A stretch of DNA of 35,090 bases from a virus (Duplodnaviria > Heunggongvirae > Uroviricota > Caudoviricetes). Under the pieces are notes generated by a model that saw only the letters and a list, made by a program, of their open reading frames with translations, was not told the origin of the DNA and ran no database searches. Each line of letters begins with the position of its first letter. Positions within the stretch are counted from its first letter, which is position 1. This document shows positions 1,038-6,555 of the stretch, in pieces. The translations under genes and the position numbers were made by a program. The stretch lies in the IMG/VR virus record IMGVR_UViG_2671180963_000003; one strand, given 5' to 3'.

Positions 1038-2000
1038 TTAAGCTGCTTTGCGAACGTCGAACACATTTTCGAACGCATCAAAAACTTTAACTGTCATTAA
1101 ATCGATGAATTGAACGGAAGAACCATTTTTCTTAATCAGGTATTTGTTCCATTCTGCAACGTCTGCAACAGTACGCTTTTCGTTAAGCAGAATCCAAAGA
1201 GCTTGTTTGTCTTTAGATTCAACCGCTTGAGTAAAGAAGTCTTTAGATTCAACTTCCCGATCTGCTTCAACAGCAACCGGAGCAACTTCTTTAGCTTTCA
1301 GTTCTTCAATCTCAGCTTTCTGTGCTTCGATGATCTGGTCTTTTTCTTTCAGTGCAGCTTTCAGTTCTGCGATCTGTGCTTCCAGTGCAGAGAAACGATC
1401 TTCAACAGCAACCGGAGAAACAGCATTAACCTGTGCTTCCAGTTCTACGAAAGCGTCGCAAGATTCAATACGTGCTTTTTCTTCACCTTCATATGCAACC
1501 AGTTCTACTACTTCTTTCTCAGTAGCGTGGCTGTTAAAGAATACAGCAAAGTAAGGATTGCCGGATTTGGTGAAGTTCAGTTTAGCTTTTCCGGTAACTT
1601 CTTTACGACGACCAAAGGTAATGTTGCAATCAGCGGTATCCTGAAAATCCATGTTAGGAGCGGAAACGATAGCAGTATCACCAGCAATCACTAGGTGGAA
1701 CAGTTCAGAAGAGTTCTTAACGGTGAAAGTAACGATGTGGTCTACTGCAACGTCTTTAGCAGGTTTAACGCGGTCGATTGCTTTACGAATGCCGTTAGGC
1801 AGTTTACCGTCAACACCAAAGCCAGCCGCGATCAGTGCTTCACGATGTGCTTTAAAGCCAGCGAAAGCGGATTTCTGCTGCGCAAAGGAAACATGAGCAA
1901 CAACTTTCGGCTGAATCTTCTTGTTTGCTTCGGTGCCAAATTTGATAACTGCTTTAGCGTTGGTTACTTCGTTAGTGAAAAAGTTAGCGGAAAATAACAT
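1038..2000 (-). CDS. hypothetical protein with a central coiled-coil segment, function unknown
   Basis: 320 aa ORF, AGGAG Shine-Dalgarno upstream on the minus strand; N-terminal domain, central A/E/K-rich coiled coil (AQIAELKAALKEKDQIIEAQKAEIEELKAKE), C-terminal domain; no family recognised by eye. Confidence 0.55.
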   Translation of the reverse strand: MLFSANFFTNEVTNAKAVIKFGTEANKKIQPKVVAHVSFAQQKSAFAGFKAHREALIAAGFGVDGKLPNGIRKAIDRVKPAKDVAVDHIVTFTVKNSSELFHLVIAGDTAIVSAPNMDFQDTADCNITFGRRKEVTGKAKLNFTKSGNPYFAVFFNSHATEKEVVELVAYEGEEKARIESCDAFVELEAQVNAVSPVAVEDRFSALEAQIAELKAALKEKDQIIEAQKAEIEELKAKEVAPVAVEADREVESKDFFTQAVESKDKQALWILLNEKRTVADVAEWNKYLIKKNGSSVQFIDLMTVKVFDAFENVFDVRKAA

Positions 2001-2044
2001 TATAAATACTCCTGTGGAAAGTTAGTTTTAATTGTTCATTTCAA

Positions 2045-2082
2045 GCCTCCCTTGTTGCAGCAAAGGAGGCTTTTTCTTTTTT
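2045..2082 (+). terminator. hairpin followed by T-run (terminator-like, plus-strand polarity)
   Basis: GCCTCC...GGAGGC imperfect long hairpin followed by TTTTTCTTTTTT; it sits in the 5' leader region of the minus-strand 320 aa gene, so its role is ambiguous. Confidence 0.3.
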
Positions 2083-2114
2083 AAAGCCATCATATAATTC
2101 TCAGTGAAAGTGGA

Positions 2115-2294
2115 TTAACAAACTTGAACGTTAATCTTTACCTGAATTTCGTATTTCTTCATTAGCTTGTAGAATCCGCTTCTATCAATTCCTTCCTTCT
2201 TAAAGAAGTTTTCCCCGCCTCGCTCAGTGTCGCTGTAAAAGCGTTTAGCAATATCAACAATCATTTCACGAGTGAACTTAACAGGTCTAGCCAT
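2115..2294 (-). CDS. small HTH DNA-binding protein (paralog of 5690..5917)
   Basis: ATG at 2294 with GAGGA 9 nt upstream; the ORF track began at an upstream GTG. Motif RPVKF...DIAKRFY...GIDRSGFYKLMKKY aligns with the 76 aa protein RPARF...DIAYAYY...GISIAQFYKNMKKL. Confidence 0.5.
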   Translation of the reverse strand: MARPVKFTREMIVDIAKRFYSDTERGGENFFKKEGIDRSGFYKLMKKYEIQVKINVQVC

Positions 2295-2395
2295 CAGTCG
2301 ATTCCTCACATGTGGATTAATAATTTCTTAAAAAGAGCATTTCGCTCTGAACACTTGTATTTATAAAATGATTTTCAGAAAACCCTGTAAAACCA

Positions 2396-2411
2396 CTGTA
2401 TATCCGATCAG
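2396..2411. promoter_or_regulatory. LexA (SOS) box-like site CTGT-N8-TCAG
   Basis: CTGTATATCCGATCAG; matches the CTGT-N8-ACAG consensus with one mismatch; abuts a candidate leftward promoter. Confidence 0.35.
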
Positions 2412-2480
2412 TGGGAGCACGAATTGCTAAAGAGAAGATTAATTATTAATCAATTCGTACAATATTCAACCGAAAAAGCA

Positions 2481-2496
2481 CTGTATATCTAACCAG
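2481..2496. promoter_or_regulatory. LexA (SOS) box-like site CTGT-N8-CCAG
   Basis: CTGTATATCTAACCAG; the first 12 nt are nearly identical to the site at 2396. Confidence 0.35.
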
Positions 2497-2498
2497 TG

Positions 2499-2514
2499 CT
2501 GTATGAATTAGCAG
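2499..2514. promoter_or_regulatory. LexA box-like site CTGT-N8-GCAG
   Basis: CTGTATGAATTAGCAG, immediately adjacent to the previous site. Confidence 0.25.
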
Positions 2515-2635
2515 TGAATCAGGAGATTTTCAGAAGTGAACAATCATTTCACACATGTATTTATAACGTGGAAATTCTTGCTTATCATCTATATGGGGAC
2601 TGTTTAGAAAATTTCAACCCCCACCAGTGAGAAAA

Positions 2636-2664
2636 AGTATAAAATAATCCTTGACAGTTGTCAA
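2636..2664 (-). promoter_or_regulatory. sigma70-like leftward promoter (TTGACA-17-TATACT)
   Basis: On the minus strand, TTGACA (2664..2659), a 17 nt spacer, TATACT (2641..2636); the -35 is one half of the palindrome TTGACAgtTGTCAA (2651..2664). Confidence 0.5.
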
Positions 2665-2859
2665 TACACTTGACCCAAGCGAGAAATGACTATCAAAATT
2701 TTTGTTTGAAAATGGTAGATCAGGATTATCAACCTTTATAACCTATTATAGCACGGAGACCTTTTGACAATTCTTTTTAAATCATTAACTTACGCCACTT
2801 TTTGGTGATTTTTTGATTAAATAATATACAAGAATTTTCTATCAAAATATTTGATGGGA

Positions 2860-3056
2860 ATTGCCCCTGAAATTCTGAATTTTTGCCCCCGAATAAAATC
2901 CCCAAGATTCTACTATCCCATTTTTGCCCCTGAAACCTACTATTTTTGCCCCTGAAATTCTGGGAAACAGTGATTTTGCCCCTCATTTTTGCCCCTGAAA
3001 TGCCAATAATTGCCCCTGAAAATCTAATTTTTGCCCCTGAAATTTGCCCCCGAAAA
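2860..3056 (+). repeat. array of about 9 direct repeats of TTGCCCCTGAAA (variants TTGCCCCCGAA) plus one inverted copy near 3100
   Basis: Copies start near 2860, 2883, 2924, 2946, 2977 (truncated), 2988, 3010, 3031 and 3045; GGGGCAAAA in inverted orientation at about 3100; an AT-rich segment precedes the array at 2800-2858. Confidence 0.8.
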
Positions 3057-3459
3057 GGATTGGTGAGAAAAACTCTTTATAAAACATTAAATTAGTGAGG
3101 GGCAAAAGCGGGTGATGCGGCGTACATAGATATTATATAACACATTCGCTACGCTCATGTGTAAAACTAAAAACAACAAATAACCAGAAAGATATTAGGA
3201 GGGCTTTAGCCCGACTGCGCGAAGCGCCAACCAATTGCTTCTAGTAACAACTAATTTAAACTAGATGATACTAGATGGTCTTAGAAGGAATTAACTAGTT
3301 TGCTCGCTCGCTTCGCTCACTCTCAAACGTCTGCGACGCCACTGCGTGGCATCGAGAATCACTTCTGAAAGGATTTTCTCGAAAGGGATTTTAAACTAGT
3401 TACTAACTGATTCTAGAAAGATAGTAATAATCACTTTAATGATCATGAAAGGTATTGGT

Positions 3460-3488
3460 ATCCCTTCGGGATTGCAACCTTCGGTTGC
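3460..3488 (+). other. two tandem short hairpins with CTTCG loops (possible RNA structure or weak terminators)
   Basis: ATCCcttcgGGAT and GCAACcttcgGTTGC in tandem, followed by a T-rich tract. Confidence 0.3.
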
Positions 3489-3686
3489 TAAATTGCTTCC
3501 TGATTATTATTTCTCCAAAAGAAAGATTCTTATATTCTAAAGATACTTCTTCGTTTTGACGATGATTTAATCAAAAATCATGAAGGAGGCGAAGCCGACT
3601 GAATCCAATCACCTTTCATAATAACAAGAATTTTCTCTTTATAAATAATATTAGATTGATTCACTTTCTTTTTAGAGGATACCACT

Positions 3687-4127
3687 ATGATCAATACTAA
3701 AACTCCTTTCGTACTTCTGGGTCTGGACTCTGAAAACTACGGCAACTTCCATATGCTAGAAGTTTTCGCTAATCGTGGTTATAACATCATTCGTCATTCC
3801 GAAGACTCCAACTACTCAACTGCTTTCTACGCTTTAAAACGAAATGGTCGTCCTACTGTGATCATCGACTGTCTTACTGATGAAGGTCGTCTTCAATACA
3901 ACGATATTCCAGCAATTATTGTTCGTGATGACCTGCCGTTTGATGTTCGTGAATACGACGTTGATTTAGGCTCTTACTATGGGATCGCCGATCTTGACCA
4001 GATTATGGCTGATTACGGTAAAGAAACCGCTCAGGAAGCCCCGGAAGATGACGAAGACTACGCTCCAATCTGTTTCTCTTCTCAGAATGGCTTCTACGGT
4101 TACGATGAAGGCTTAGATATGCTGTAA
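3687..4127 (+). CDS. strongly acidic early protein, function unknown (possible DNA-mimic/anti-restriction candidate)
   Basis: 146 aa ORF, AGAGGA Shine-Dalgarno; about 27 Asp/Glu versus about 10 Lys/Arg; first rightward gene after the large control region. Confidence 0.55.
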   Translation: MINTKTPFVLLGLDSENYGNFHMLEVFANRGYNIIRHSEDSNYSTAFYALKRNGRPTVIIDCLTDEGRLQYNDIPAIIVRDDLPFDVREYDVDLGSYYGIADLDQIMADYGKETAQEAPEDDEDYAPICFSSQNGFYGYDEGLDML

Positions 4128-4149
4128 GTTAGGTCAACCCTTTGGCATC

Positions 4150-4169
4150 TTGTCAAGGGGTATTGACAA
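4150..4169. promoter_or_regulatory. palindromic operator-like site TTGTCAA-N6-TTGACAA overlapping a promoter -35
   Basis: Perfect 7 bp inverted repeat with a 6 bp spacer; its right half-site is the -35 of the promoter at 4163-4191. Confidence 0.4.
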
Positions 4170-4191
4170 AATTTTATGACTTTTTTATGAT
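4163..4191 (+). promoter_or_regulatory. sigma70-like rightward promoter (TTGACA-17-TATGAT)
   Basis: TTGACA at 4163-4168, 17 nt spacer, TATGAT at 4186-4191; further TTGACA/TTGACC motifs at 4200 and 4217 suggest tandem promoters. Confidence 0.5.
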
Positions 4192-4247
4192 TATCGCACT
4201 TGACAACTTTGAACCTATTTGACCTAGATTTGTAAAGAGAATGTAAC

Positions 4248-4397
4248 ATGAAAGAATTTACCATCACTAAATCCCTGTATGACTGGACTGTTAAAATCTC
4301 CGGCAAAACCGTTTCTGTAACCCCTAGCCATGTAGAAAATGATTGGGTGTATCCCGTGAAACTATCTCCCGTAGTATGCATGTTCCGTTTGATCTGA
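4248..4397 (+). CDS. small ORF (49 aa), hypothetical
   Basis: ATG at 4248 downstream of the promoter; weak Shine-Dalgarno; absent from the ORF track because of its size; overlaps the next ORF by 22 nt in another frame. Confidence 0.25.
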   Translation: MKEFTITKSLYDWTVKISGKTVSVTPSHVENDWVYPVKLSPVVCMFRLI

Positions 4398-4579
4398 TGT
4401 CCTTAACTGGTATTCATGCAATGCTGGAAGTTCGCGAGCAATTCGAAGCTGGTAATCACAATGCAACTCCAGTTAGCAATCACCTTCTTACTAATGAAGA
4501 ACGTGAAATCATCGAAAACTGGCGTTATGAATATGCGATTCCTTATTATGAAGAAGACCAAGTAGAAATCGATTGGTAA
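4376..4579 (+). CDS. small acidic protein, hypothetical
   Basis: ATG at 4376 in the frame of the 4343..4579 track ORF (which starts at a TTG); no clear Shine-Dalgarno, so it may be translationally coupled or frameshifted to the preceding small ORF. Confidence 0.35.
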   Translation: MHVPFDLMSLTGIHAMLEVREQFEAGNHNATPVSNHLLTNEEREIIENWRYEYAIPYYEEDQVEIDW

Positions 4580-4668
4580 TAAATTTCTATTATAAATAAA
4601 ATTGTTCCGGTGGTGATGCCGGAACTAGGAGGACCAAATCATTAAACCGTTTAAGGGGAATTTTTACT

Positions 4669-5496
4669 ATGAATACTGTTACCGTTATGAATACTGCTAA
4701 AACTGCTTCCGTGTCTCTGGTTGTTGATAACACCAAACCGCTGACCATGTCTTCTCGTCAGATCGCTGAATTTGTTGATAAGCGCCATGATAACGTTGTT
4801 CGCGATATTCGTAAGATGCTGAACGAGTTAGAAAAAGATGTCCTCAAATTTGAGGGCATCTATCTTGACCAATATGGACGCGAGAAAATCGAATATCACT
4901 TAGACGAAGAAATGACTCTGACTCTTGTCACTGGTTACGATGTTAAGCGTCGAATGATCGTTATTCAGGAATGGAAGCGACTGAAAGAAGAAAATGAAAA
5001 ACTGCGTTCTCAGCAAATCAACCCTTACGCAAACATGACTAAGCTCGACTGGATTCGTGAGGCAATGGAATTGGAAGCCGCAAACGAACAACTGATTCAA
5101 GAAAAGAAACAACTGGTTGAATTGCATGTTCGTAAAGCTATCGACACACACAGTCTTAGCCGCTTATTAGGCGAAAAACGAGGCTCTACGACGGTACAAA
5201 TGATTCTGAAAGGTTTATGTGCTGCTGGTGTTCTTGAGCGTCGTCTGGATGCTTCTGGTAAGCCTAAAGGCTATGATCTGCTTCCTCCTGGCTATATGTT
5301 CGCTCGTATGTCGGCACACGGTCAGATCGAGTTCACTGCTGATGCTATCCCGCATCTCGTAAAACTCGGATTGCTTGAAGAAGAAAAGGCCGCAACTTTG
5401 AAATTGCCACAGCCGAACAACTCACGAGCAATCATTAATAACACTGCTTTGCTGATTCGTCAGAATGCTGGCTCTCTGGAAGTCTTCGGACTGTAA
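4669..5496 (+). CDS. Rha-family phage regulatory protein (antirepressor-like)
   Basis: N-terminal motif LTMSSRQIAEFVDKRHDNVVRDIRKM resembles the Rha domain signature as recalled from memory; 275 aa; AAGGGG Shine-Dalgarno. Confidence 0.6.
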   Translation: MNTVTVMNTAKTASVSLVVDNTKPLTMSSRQIAEFVDKRHDNVVRDIRKMLNELEKDVLKFEGIYLDQYGREKIEYHLDEEMTLTLVTGYDVKRRMIVIQEWKRLKEENEKLRSQQINPYANMTKLDWIREAMELEAANEQLIQEKKQLVELHVRKAIDTHSLSRLLGEKRGSTTVQMILKGLCAAGVLERRLDASGKPKGYDLLPPGYMFARMSAHGQIEFTADAIPHLVKLGLLEEEKAATLKLPQPNNSRAIINNTALLIRQNAGSLEVFGL

Positions 5497-5504
5497 TAAT
5501 TTTT

Positions 5505-5529
5505 GCCCCTGAATTTCAGGGGCTTTTTT
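5505..5529 (+). terminator. rho-independent terminator built from the repeat motif
   Basis: GCCCCTG-aattt-CAGGGGC followed by TTTTTT immediately after the Rha-like gene; the stem contains the same GCCCCTGAA motif as the repeat array. Confidence 0.7.
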
Positions 5530-5689: not shown

Positions 5690-5917
5690 TCAAAAACCTG
5701 TTGCTTCTACGATCTGACCATCACCGATCTGAACATAGAATTTAATGTCTAACTTCTTCATATTCTTATAGAATTGGGCGATTGAGATCCCATGTTCACT
5801 AAGAATCTGTTCTTTCGCTTCCTTACCACGATCCGCTGTATAATAAGCGTAGGCAATATCAGCCATTTGTTCAGCGTTAAAACGGGCAGGGCGACCGCGA
5901 GTAGCTTTAGTAGTCAT
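5690..5917 (-). CDS. small HTH DNA-binding protein (paralog of 2115..2294)
   Basis: Likely start ATG at 5917 (GGAG 9 nt upstream) rather than the track's GTG at 5950; ends with a Hin/resolvase-like HTH, GISIAQFYKNMKKL. Confidence 0.5.
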   Translation of the reverse strand: MTTKATRGRPARFNAEQMADIAYAYYTADRGKEAKEQILSEHGISIAQFYKNMKKLDIKFYVQIGDGQIVEATGF

Positions 5918-5952
5918 AGTCATTTTCTCCAAATTAAAGTGAATGTTCACCT

Positions 5953-6555
5953 TTATTTAGAGGACTTACATTTTATCGGAAAAAGTTCTCCATCGTCAAC
6001 CGACATAAAGAACTCTGCCTTAATCCCGTACTTCTTCAACCGTGAATAGTATGTACCCCGACTAATATCAACCTTGCGAAGCACTTCAAAGAACCCTTTA
6101 GGATCGTTGTAATAGTGGCTATAACGCACGTTAGCGAGTTCAACGAATAGTTCCCTTGTATCACCATAGCCTTTCTTGAAAGCCTCGTTACGATAGCGTG
6201 TAATTGCGTGATTCAATCTCTTCTGTTTCAACACTTCTCGGATCGGCTTCCACTGCAACCGATAGATAGGACCGTCATCAATGCGATAATAACGCTTGAT
6301 ATCAAAATCAAACCAATCTCGGACTCTCCGAAACTCTGTATGCGATGTTCTATGCTTCTTAAAGAAGTTGTGAACGTCTGTATAACCATTATCACGGTAA
6401 AATTCTATTAAAATCTCTTTCGCTTCCTCACGGCTAAAACCGGATGTTGTGTAATCAGTCTTTAAGTGCTTATGTTTTACTGGCAAACGATATTCATGAT
6501 CGGTACAAGACAAGGCTAATTCTAATTCATCTCTTTGTTGCTGATTAATTAGCAT
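5953..6555 (-). CDS. basic protein with HTH-like segments, function unknown
   Basis: 200 aa, AAGGGGG Shine-Dalgarno; C-terminal [16 protein letters not shown] resembles the HTH of the two small paralogs; antisense to the flanking Rha-like and terminase genes. Confidence 0.55.

Follow-up and report, generated by a model that had tools for sequence, protein, structure and literature searches.

Is the prophage analyzed here coupled to the SOS response of its host and, if so, through which of its genes? The stretch of DNA in question (35,090 bp, hereafter called the window) comprises nearly the entire length of a ~36-kb prophage, which is integrated in the Escherichia coli gene ycdX via a large serine recombinase. 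Its early control region contains, between positions 2396 and 2514, three sequences that resemble LexA-binding sites (LexA boxes), and the original prediction had connected these with a Rha-type antirepressor encoded further downstream. We favor a different connection, to which we assign a probability of about 60% from sequence comparisons: LexA operators located in an early-region cassette would hold a leftward operon, p59-p320-p113, in the off state, and the SOS response would release it. The more limited proposition that the three sites are functional operators for host LexA we consider very likely.

All three sites were recovered where the original prediction had placed them, with cores at 2396-2411 (CTGTATATCCGATCAG), 2481-2496 (CTGTATATCTAACCAG) and 2499-2514 (CTGTATGAATTAGCAG). 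LexA of E. coli, Shigella and Salmonella recognizes the pattern CTGT-N8-ACAG (PMC6590174, PMC8072944). We scored the window with a position weight matrix of 27 E. coli LexA sites of our own compilation, of which the consensus, TACTG(TA)5CAGTA, was verified (PMC6590174); its training sites range from 12.5 to 26.4 bits, with heterology indices (HI, own computation) between 0.8 and 10.8. As 20-mers, the boxes are:

2394-2413: LexA box 1, CACTGTATATCCGATCAGTG, with the core CTGT-N8-TCAG at 2396-2411; 13.8 bits, HI 10.7, at the weak end of known sites
2479-2498: LexA box 2, CACTGTATATCTAACCAGTG, with its core at 2481-2496; 20.9 bits, HI 5.8, a strong site and the best in the window
2497-2516: LexA box 3, TGCTGTATGAATTAGCAGTG, with its core at 2499-2514; 12.5 bits, HI 10.8

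The boxes are the three best matches to the matrix in the window. Box 2, which matches the LexA consensus at 15 of 20 positions, falls well within the known range, and boxes 1 and 3 are weak. Boxes 2 and 3 are arranged in tandem, their 20-mers overlapping by 2 nt and their centers being 18 bp apart, while box 1 lies 85 bp to the left of this pair.

Such a cluster is rare in random sequence. The loose pattern CTGT-N9-CAG is found six times in the window, where 2.4 occurrences are expected, and 7 of 100 shuffled sequences reach this count; the more specific pattern CTGTAT-N7-CAGTG is confined within the window to the three boxes (0.45 expected). Among 500 first-order Markov sequences as long as the window, 0.6% had a site of at least 20 bits and 1.2% had at least three sites of at least 12.5 bits, but none had three such sites within 125 bp. 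Further, no site of at least 12.5 bits was detected in 108 kb from twelve related loci without the cassette, nor in the loci L007 (33 kb) and L094 (20 kb), which consist mostly of host DNA beside the right end of the prophage.

To follow the boxes through evolution, we gathered relatives from complete E. coli genomes, from IMG/VR (using an invariant 17-mer located between the boxes) and from contigs encoding homologues of p59. The three boxes are present at fixed offsets in 37 E. coli and Salmonella loci with the cassette; box 1 has the same offset in 37 of 37 and is degraded in one of them (L028, 8.1 bits). Across 20 distinct E. coli-type sequences, only 1 of 18 columns of the CTG/CAG cores is variable, compared to 12 of 30 spacer columns. 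In box 2, CTG and CAG are invariant in these sequences and half of the spacer columns vary; in box 3, most relatives have ACAG in place of GCAG and a score of 15-23 bits. The observed substitutions cost less in matrix score than random single substitutions would (P = 0.03). The best-conserved stretch is the 65-bp interval between boxes 1 and 2, with 18% variable columns compared to 30-46% elsewhere.

The Salmonella relatives extend this picture over a larger distance. Their p59 proteins are 55-88% identical, the flanks of the boxes have diverged and the sequence past box 3 is unrelated. Nonetheless, all three boxes are kept and mostly score 17-24 bits, with two loci having a weaker box 1 (10.6 and 14.2 bits). 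Box 1 reaches up to 21.3 bits in Salmonella, an example being CACTGTATATTTACACAGGT; in locus L113 it is followed by TACTGTATATTTAAACAGTG and TGCTGTATTCTTATACAGTA as boxes 2 and 3. The right arms of the Salmonella boxes differ in sequence (ACACAGGT as compared to GATCAGTG), so the boxes stay within the LexA motif space without being copies of one sequence. Rebuilding the motif from 35 distinct prophage sites yielded TACTGTATGTTTAAACAGTG, and the resulting matrix correlates with the E. coli LexA set at r = 0.85. Arms that vary inside the LexA motif, combined with flanks in which hairpin pairing is not kept, are the pattern expected from selection for LexA binding; the same pattern argues against chance, a phage-specific operator and a hairpin. 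The boxes therefore have the motif and the score range of SOS boxes, they reside in a LexA-bearing host and their critical positions are maintained in E. coli and Salmonella relatives, all of which upholds the original prediction in regarding them as good candidates for LexA sites.

The boxes are part of a block that can be delimited by alignment:

2295-2535 (240 bp): conserved LexA cassette, common to E. coli and Salmonella relatives

Among 5,426 complete genomes of E. coli, 63 have the prophage region, and 31 of these 63 carry the cassette. Strains rl0044 and PE15 are among the carriers, with 99-100% identity across the boxes, while ETEC1703 has the box-free alternative. The other half of the family, approximately, as well as relatives in Proteus mirabilis, have a different sequence from p59 to a region of iterons (short direct repeats, see below), and neither the alternative cassette nor the Proteus relatives contain a LexA-like site. 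In the box-free E. coli cassette, five TGTTA repeats stand in for box 1, and boxes 2 and 3 are replaced by another copy of the palindrome AGCA-N5-TGCT, whose first copy is located between boxes 1 and 2. The presence of the LexA cassette is independent of the alleles of p59, p320, p146 (a gene to the right of the iterons) and Rha, and it thus behaves as a separate recombination module.

Which transcript would LexA control from this position? The elements that have to be considered are:

2664-2636, minus strand: PL, a strong leftward promoter-like site, TTGACA (2664-2659), 17 nt, TATACT (2641-2636), with 11/12 consensus matches
2435-2463, plus strand: candidate weak rightward promoter, -35 AAGATT (2435-2440), 17 nt, -10 TACAAT (2458-2463)
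2423-2395, minus strand: candidate weak leftward promoter, -35 TTCGTG (2423-2418), 17 nt, -10 TACAGT (2400-2395) inside box 1
2416-2428: palindrome AGCA-N5-TGCT, AGCACGAATTGCT, between boxes 1 and 2, occurring once in the window
2330-2348, minus strand: terminator-like hairpin read from the sequence, AGAGC-GAAAU-GCUCU followed by UUUU, directly upstream of the p59 ribosome-binding site
2115-2294, minus strand: p59, encoding a basic protein of 59 aa; it comes first among the genes downstream of the boxes and is present among the gene calls of identical contigs
1038-2000, minus strand: p320, the second gene of the leftward operon
after p320, minus strand: p113, a 113-aa coiled-coil protein

PL reads through boxes 3, 2 and 1 toward p59, whose start codon (ATG at 2294) is 100 nt from box 1, so that the boxes occupy the region 100-220 bp upstream of the gene. 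In the Salmonella locus L103, PL has 12/12 consensus matches. A PL-like promoter is present in 17 of 17 loci examined, at a distance of 40-121 nt from box 3 if the boxes are present; in the three loci without them, it is 128-160 nt away from where box 3 would be. In every relative examined that has the cassette, the boxes are located in the leader between PL and p59.

The two weaker candidates were evaluated with our own hexamer scoring. The leftward one, whose -35 element falls on the AGCA-N5-TGCT palindrome, scores 5.2 bits and is identical in 18 scored cassette-bearing loci. The rightward one reaches 11.1 bits in Salmonella, where it reads TTGATT-17-TACATT, and 4.9 bits in the window; its -10-like element is kept in both cassette types, reading TATATT in the box-free relatives, and its inferred start at ~2470 would place boxes 2 and 3 at approximately +10 to +47.

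Two other leftward promoters were considered and set aside. The one named in the original prediction, TTTACA (2391-2386) with TTATAA (2366-2361), has a poor spacer of 19 nt and went unreported in a promoter scan. The one that the scan did report, TTGAAT-16-AATAAT (2469-2442), has AAAGGT as its -10 element in Salmonella and has lost its -35 element in L111-L113. We likewise rejected a small open reading frame (ORF) past box 3 as an SOS-induced toxin (AGGAG, GTG at 2536, 23 aa), since it has indels of 1-3 nt in relatives and is missing in Salmonella.

From this layout, the mechanism that we propose would operate as follows. In an undamaged lysogen, LexA dimers would occupy the tandem boxes 3 and 2 as well as box 1. 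The bound LexA would block transcription originating at PL, keeping p59-p320-p113 off, and would also occlude the weak leftward promoter that has its -10 element inside box 1. From boxes 2 and 3 it may additionally repress the weak rightward promoter, which faces PL. DNA damage would lead to RecA-stimulated self-cleavage of LexA, the boxes would be vacated and early transcription would be released, making the developmental decision of the prophage responsive to SOS without a self-cleaving repressor of the CI type. The leftward operon is the most likely target, and probably the actual one, because it would be hit under either arrangement, the block of PL transcription or the occlusion of the box-1 promoter. 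For the rightward promoter, a role as LexA target is possible and we put it forward tentatively.

Several observations weigh against this explanation. Relative to the inferred start of PL, the boxes are located ~33-114 nt downstream, which is not the canonical position for occluding a promoter; their distance from PL is too large and too variable for promoter occlusion of the classical kind. To our knowledge, LexA has not been established as a roadblock to elongation. Both local promoter candidates are weak by consensus and were not reported by a consensus promoter scan. The hairpin at 2330-2348 lies between the boxes and p59, so transcription would have to read through it. Boxes 1 and 3 are weak in the copy found in the window (13.8 and 12.5 bits), and the scores depend on a matrix built from our own compilation of sites. 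Boxes are missing from the Proteus relatives and from about half of the family, which implies that LexA control is dispensable for this type of phage. Finally, the gene products that would be released offer little guidance: a fold search with p59 (Foldseek) returned only non-significant matches of the helix-turn-helix (HTH) type (E > 2), and p320 had no match in Pfam, PHROG, NCBIfam, PADLOC or the sequences of the PDB.

Two rival explanations deny LexA any role at this locus. If the sites were functionless chance matches, it would not be surprising that CTGT-N9-CAG by itself is not significantly enriched in the window and that two of the three sites are weak. Yet none of the 500 random sequences had a comparable cluster, the 108 kb of cassette-free relatives contain no such sites, and the positions are conserved in two genera with substitutions that resemble those under selection, leaving next to no probability for chance. 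Alternatively, the sites could serve another function, as operators of a phage protein that resemble CTGT-N8-ACAG or as stems of RNA hairpins (CACUG-N10-CAGUG) in the leftward leader. In E. coli, the right side reads CAGTG in all three sites and the left side CACTG in two, so each site could form a 5-bp stem, and the sites are found in a transcribed leader beside another conserved palindrome. However, the flanking pairs are lost in Salmonella (CACTG...CAGGT or CAGGG), where the LexA-specific CTGTAT and CAG are kept, and positions 6-8 (TAT) are conserved even though they would be part of the loop. The arms wander through the LexA motif space rather than holding to a single phage-specific word, and none of the phage proteins varies in step with whether the sites are present. 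We thus regard a function unrelated to LexA as very unlikely.

The remaining rivals accept LexA and differ in the genes it would control, among them the one to which the original prediction had pointed:

4669-5496, plus strand: Rha-family protein, 275 aa, with PF09669 (Phage_pRha) at residues 27-106

The presence of a Rha-like protein was borne out by the Pfam match (52.2 bits at a gathering cut-off of 29.9, E = 9.1e-14) and by a match to PHROG 63, "anti-repressor Ant" (E = 1.6e-20). The accompanying statement that no CI-like repressor is evident also held, as no CI-like, HTH_3 or S24 domain was detected in any ORF scanned.

In one rival, which is compatible with the explanation we favor, LexA acts as repressor or co-repressor of a rightward early promoter in the lytic direction, in the manner of CTXphi and GIL01, with boxes 2 and 3 just past the start and box 1 and AGCA-N5-TGCT upstream. 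SOS induction would then free transcription through the iteron region into p146, a 110-aa gene and Rha, head-on to PL, and thereby flip the switch. This would agree with the retention of the -10-like element at 2458-2463 in both cassettes (TACAAT, TACATT, TATATT), with the -35 element TTGATT in Salmonella, and with the high conservation of the interval between boxes 1 and 2. It would also agree with the second AGCA-N5-TGCT that box-free relatives have where boxes 2 and 3 would be, which looks as though another protein gated the same promoter, and with the lack of a CI-type repressor among the ORFs scanned; precedents exist for LexA sites just past a start site (PMC4551915, PMC2994835). On the other hand, the E. 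coli -35 element is poor (AAGATT, 2/6), the promoter was not reported by the scan, the -10 element reads TTTATT in Salmonella L111-L113, and the first rightward ORF is 1.17 kb away, with no conserved ORF following the boxes; overall, we consider this rival serious, though less likely than not. In the model of the original prediction, the boxes control Rha, which would be an antirepressor that inactivates a non-cleavable phage repressor, comparable to Tum of phage 186, the Gifsy antirepressors and AntC of N15. Rha does have a counterpart among the "anti-repressor Ant" PHROGs, rightward transcription out of the box region would read the strand on which it is encoded, and LexA-controlled antirepressors are well documented in the work that PMC4551915 and PMC8072944 cite. 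But Rha starts 2.15 kb from the boxes, beyond a 1.17-kb non-coding stretch with the iteron array and structured DNA and beyond two other genes, and its gene group is directly preceded by a near-consensus promoter-like site of its own (TTGACA-17-TATGAT, 4163-4191, plus strand). No LexA-like site above 6.1 bits is present at 4100-4669. The cassette does not go with particular alleles of Rha (37-100% identity), box-free relatives having a Rha that is 90% identical, and searches with hidden Markov models (HMMs) recognized no target repressor on which Rha could act. Rha is thus neither directly downstream of the boxes nor found to co-vary with them across relatives, and both its role as a direct LexA target and the model built on it appear improbable.

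If any antirepressor-like protein is controlled by the boxes, p320 is a better candidate than Rha by its sequence, because its C-terminal 120 residues are shared with an ORF6N protein: they are 91% identical to those of P0148, which has an N-terminal ORF6N domain. The p320 family is tiny, with 12 representative clusters among 1.84 billion proteins. Its AlphaFold2 model is poor (predicted local distance difference test, pLDDT, of 57 from a 7-sequence alignment), with nothing below E = 0.06 in Foldseek searches, and a scan of the genome contigs with p320 produced only an irrelevant coiled-coil match. p320 is modular, its coiled coil together with the C-terminal domain being found also in fusion with ORF6N, and many E. 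coli alleles combine a near-identical N-terminal 76% with a different C-terminus. Its coding sequence contains a fourth LexA-like site (TGCTGTATTCTTTAACAGCC, 1529-1548) with a perfect CTGT-N8-ACAG core and a score of 12.3 bits; the coding DNA is too conserved to tell whether this site is under selection.

For p59, which has homologues in E. coli, Salmonella and Proteus, the AlphaFold2 model has three helices (pLDDT 77.6), and the protein is probably a DNA-binding domain of three helices. Its paralogues are p86 (5690-5950) and both halves of p200 (5953-6555), all encoded on the minus strand and all helix-rich (BLASTP E = 9e-10 to 6e-4), so that the phage carries four copies of one unassigned, probably DNA-binding module.

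The palindrome AGCA-N5-TGCT does not vary among the E. coli and Salmonella relatives, with or without boxes and whichever alleles of p59, p146 or Rha they have; the Proteus relatives lack it. It is probably the operator of a regulator. We considered p59 as the protein that binds it, but this is not supported, as Proteus keeps the sequence of the p59 recognition helix without having the operator. The hairpin downstream of box 1 was detected by a scan in L103, and its pairing is kept with different stems in box-free relatives (GAGCG/CGCUC) and in Proteus; it could be an attenuator or a terminator through which p59 transcription must read. Two further palindromes overlap the -35 elements of strong promoter-like sites: TTGACAgtTGTCAA at 2651-2664 that of PL, and the inverted repeat TTGTCAA-N6-TTGACAA (4150-4169) that of the rightward site at 4163-4191. 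They (TTGACA/TGTCAA) may be operators of a phage repressor or plain -35 hexamers.

LexA boxes on prophage promoters are already known to couple induction to DNA damage, so that the finding is unsurprising in kind. It is distinctive in its combination of three boxes, two of them in tandem, their location in the leader of a promoter of consensus strength, the absence of a recognizable repressor and the existence of a box-free allelic cassette. In the arrangement of the boxes, the prophage resembles colicin operons, such as those of ColE1 and colicin K, where tandem SOS boxes can bind two LexA dimers and are associated with very tight repression (PMC2994835). There, too, two boxes lie side by side, but directly after the -10 element of a mapped promoter, whereas the prophage promoter is a candidate; moreover, the prophage has a third box 85 bp away and is not a colicin plasmid. 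In colicin operons, the box centers are ~15-16 bp apart, compared to the 18 bp seen in the prophage.

The antirepressors of 186 (Tum), Gifsy-1, Gifsy-3 and Fels-2, and AntC of N15, are LexA-controlled (references in PMC4551915 and PMC8072944). These are temperate enterobacterial phages without a self-cleaving repressor that receive the SOS signal via a LexA box on a phage promoter, as we propose for the prophage studied here, in which p320 has the C-terminal domain in common with the ORF6N-type "antirepressor-like" protein. They differ in that the box is located on the promoter of a defined antirepressor whose repressor is known, while here Rha is not adjacent to the boxes. A second group of relevant systems comprises GIL01 and CTXphi (PrstA-RstR), which also have LexA sites in a central control region and no CI-like self-cleaving repressor. 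At the GIL01 promoter P1, LexA sites downstream of the start mediate repression, assisted by the small phage proteins gp7 and gp1 (PMC4551915). GIL01 is a Bacillus tectivirus and CTXphi is found in Vibrio, in contrast to a tailed, siphovirus-like prophage integrated in E. coli with a LexA motif of the gammaproteobacterial type; in the latter, the three boxes likewise lie in the central control region, where they adjoin another conserved operator and the gene for p59, probably a DNA-binding protein. We found no homology of the prophage proteins to gp7, gp1 or RstR.

The PSOSP method predicts SOS dependence of prophages from a low-HI LexA box in the promoter region (PMC12527982) and so divides them into SOS-dependent and SOS-independent classes. 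The ycdX family holds both states, not as separate lineages but as allelic cassettes at one locus in mosaic, homologous prophages. Cassettes with and without boxes provide a natural comparison, which could show how SOS dependence is gained or lost by cassette exchange. The boxes also offer a concrete point of entry into the regulation of a common prophage family in which no early gene has a functional assignment, and the analysis corrects a tempting mis-annotation, since the gene under SOS control is probably not the "Rha antirepressor". A more comprehensive picture, which we offer as speculation, is that host LexA forms part of the lysogeny switch in ycdX prophages, which have no recognizable CI/Cro-type repressor or replication genes. 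Three operators would be situated between the convergent PL and weak rightward promoters, next to an invariant second operator, and the SOS input would be a swappable cassette with SOS-dependent and SOS-independent alleles. SOS would release p59 or the ORF6N-related p320 as the effector, whose role would be that of an antirepressor, a LexA co-factor or a recombination directionality factor that serves the serine recombinase.

The prophage itself is temperate and siphovirus-like. Proteins of the window were found identical in E. coli assemblies, with homologues annotated in E. coli, Shigella and E. fergusonii; its exact DNA and proteins sit in E. coli and Shigella chromosomes, with relatives in Salmonella. 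In a complete genome, ycdX, which is located between ghrA and ycdY, is interrupted by a related element, and the right end of the window is the last prophage gene ahead of the ycdX remnant. Assignments could be made for a gpA-type large terminase, the large serine recombinase, a portal protein, a protease-capsid fusion, an M15 endolysin and lambda-like tail genes, while profile searches gave no family assignment for the small early genes. HMM searches recognized no repressor of whatever kind, and no replication or partition protein was recognized in any ORF scanned. Megablast against the sequenced phages and plasmids in the collections yielded no match, the best capsid match was 43.6% identical, and a literature search for a ycdX prophage returned unrelated papers only. 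One protein of the family is indexed in more than 1,400 blocks of a public-assembly collection.

In E. coli, Salmonella and Proteus (L006, L007, L094-L104), it is always ycdX, a gene of the PHP family, that is interrupted by this prophage family with its large serine recombinase. The family is highly mosaic, its large terminase (TerL) alleles being 53-100% identical and its Rha alleles 37-100%. The gene between p146 and Rha (4248-4579, plus strand) is a single 110-aa ORF in relatives and is frameshifted in the window, where it appears as a 49-aa ORF and an overlapping ORF of 60/78 aa. At the extreme left end of the prophage, ~0.1-0.65 kb to the left of window position 1, a 184-aa ORF (L002:12001-12555) matches the terminase small subunit family PHROG 57 with E = 6e-11; the large terminase gene is ~6.5 kb away, beyond the control region and genes of the opposite orientation.

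To the right of the cassette, the non-coding DNA has two conspicuous features. The stretch at 3190-3500 (plus strand) has several GC-rich hairpins, among them two adjacent hairpins with cUUCGg tetraloops at ~3461-3490; it folds better than shuffled sequences (z = -3.6) and has no match in Rfam, and known RNA families gave nothing but noise at E <= 1 across 1900-4700. One possibility is that it forms a structured leader, another that it encodes a non-coding RNA, upstream of p146. Between the cassette and p146 are the eight direct iterons TTGCCCCYGAA (2861-3054), a number reached in none of 100 shuffled sequences, with a ninth copy (5503-5513) just past the stop codon of Rha. In relatives, different iterons occupy this position, with CCTACACTA found in some E. 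coli and ATCCCTAG in Proteus.

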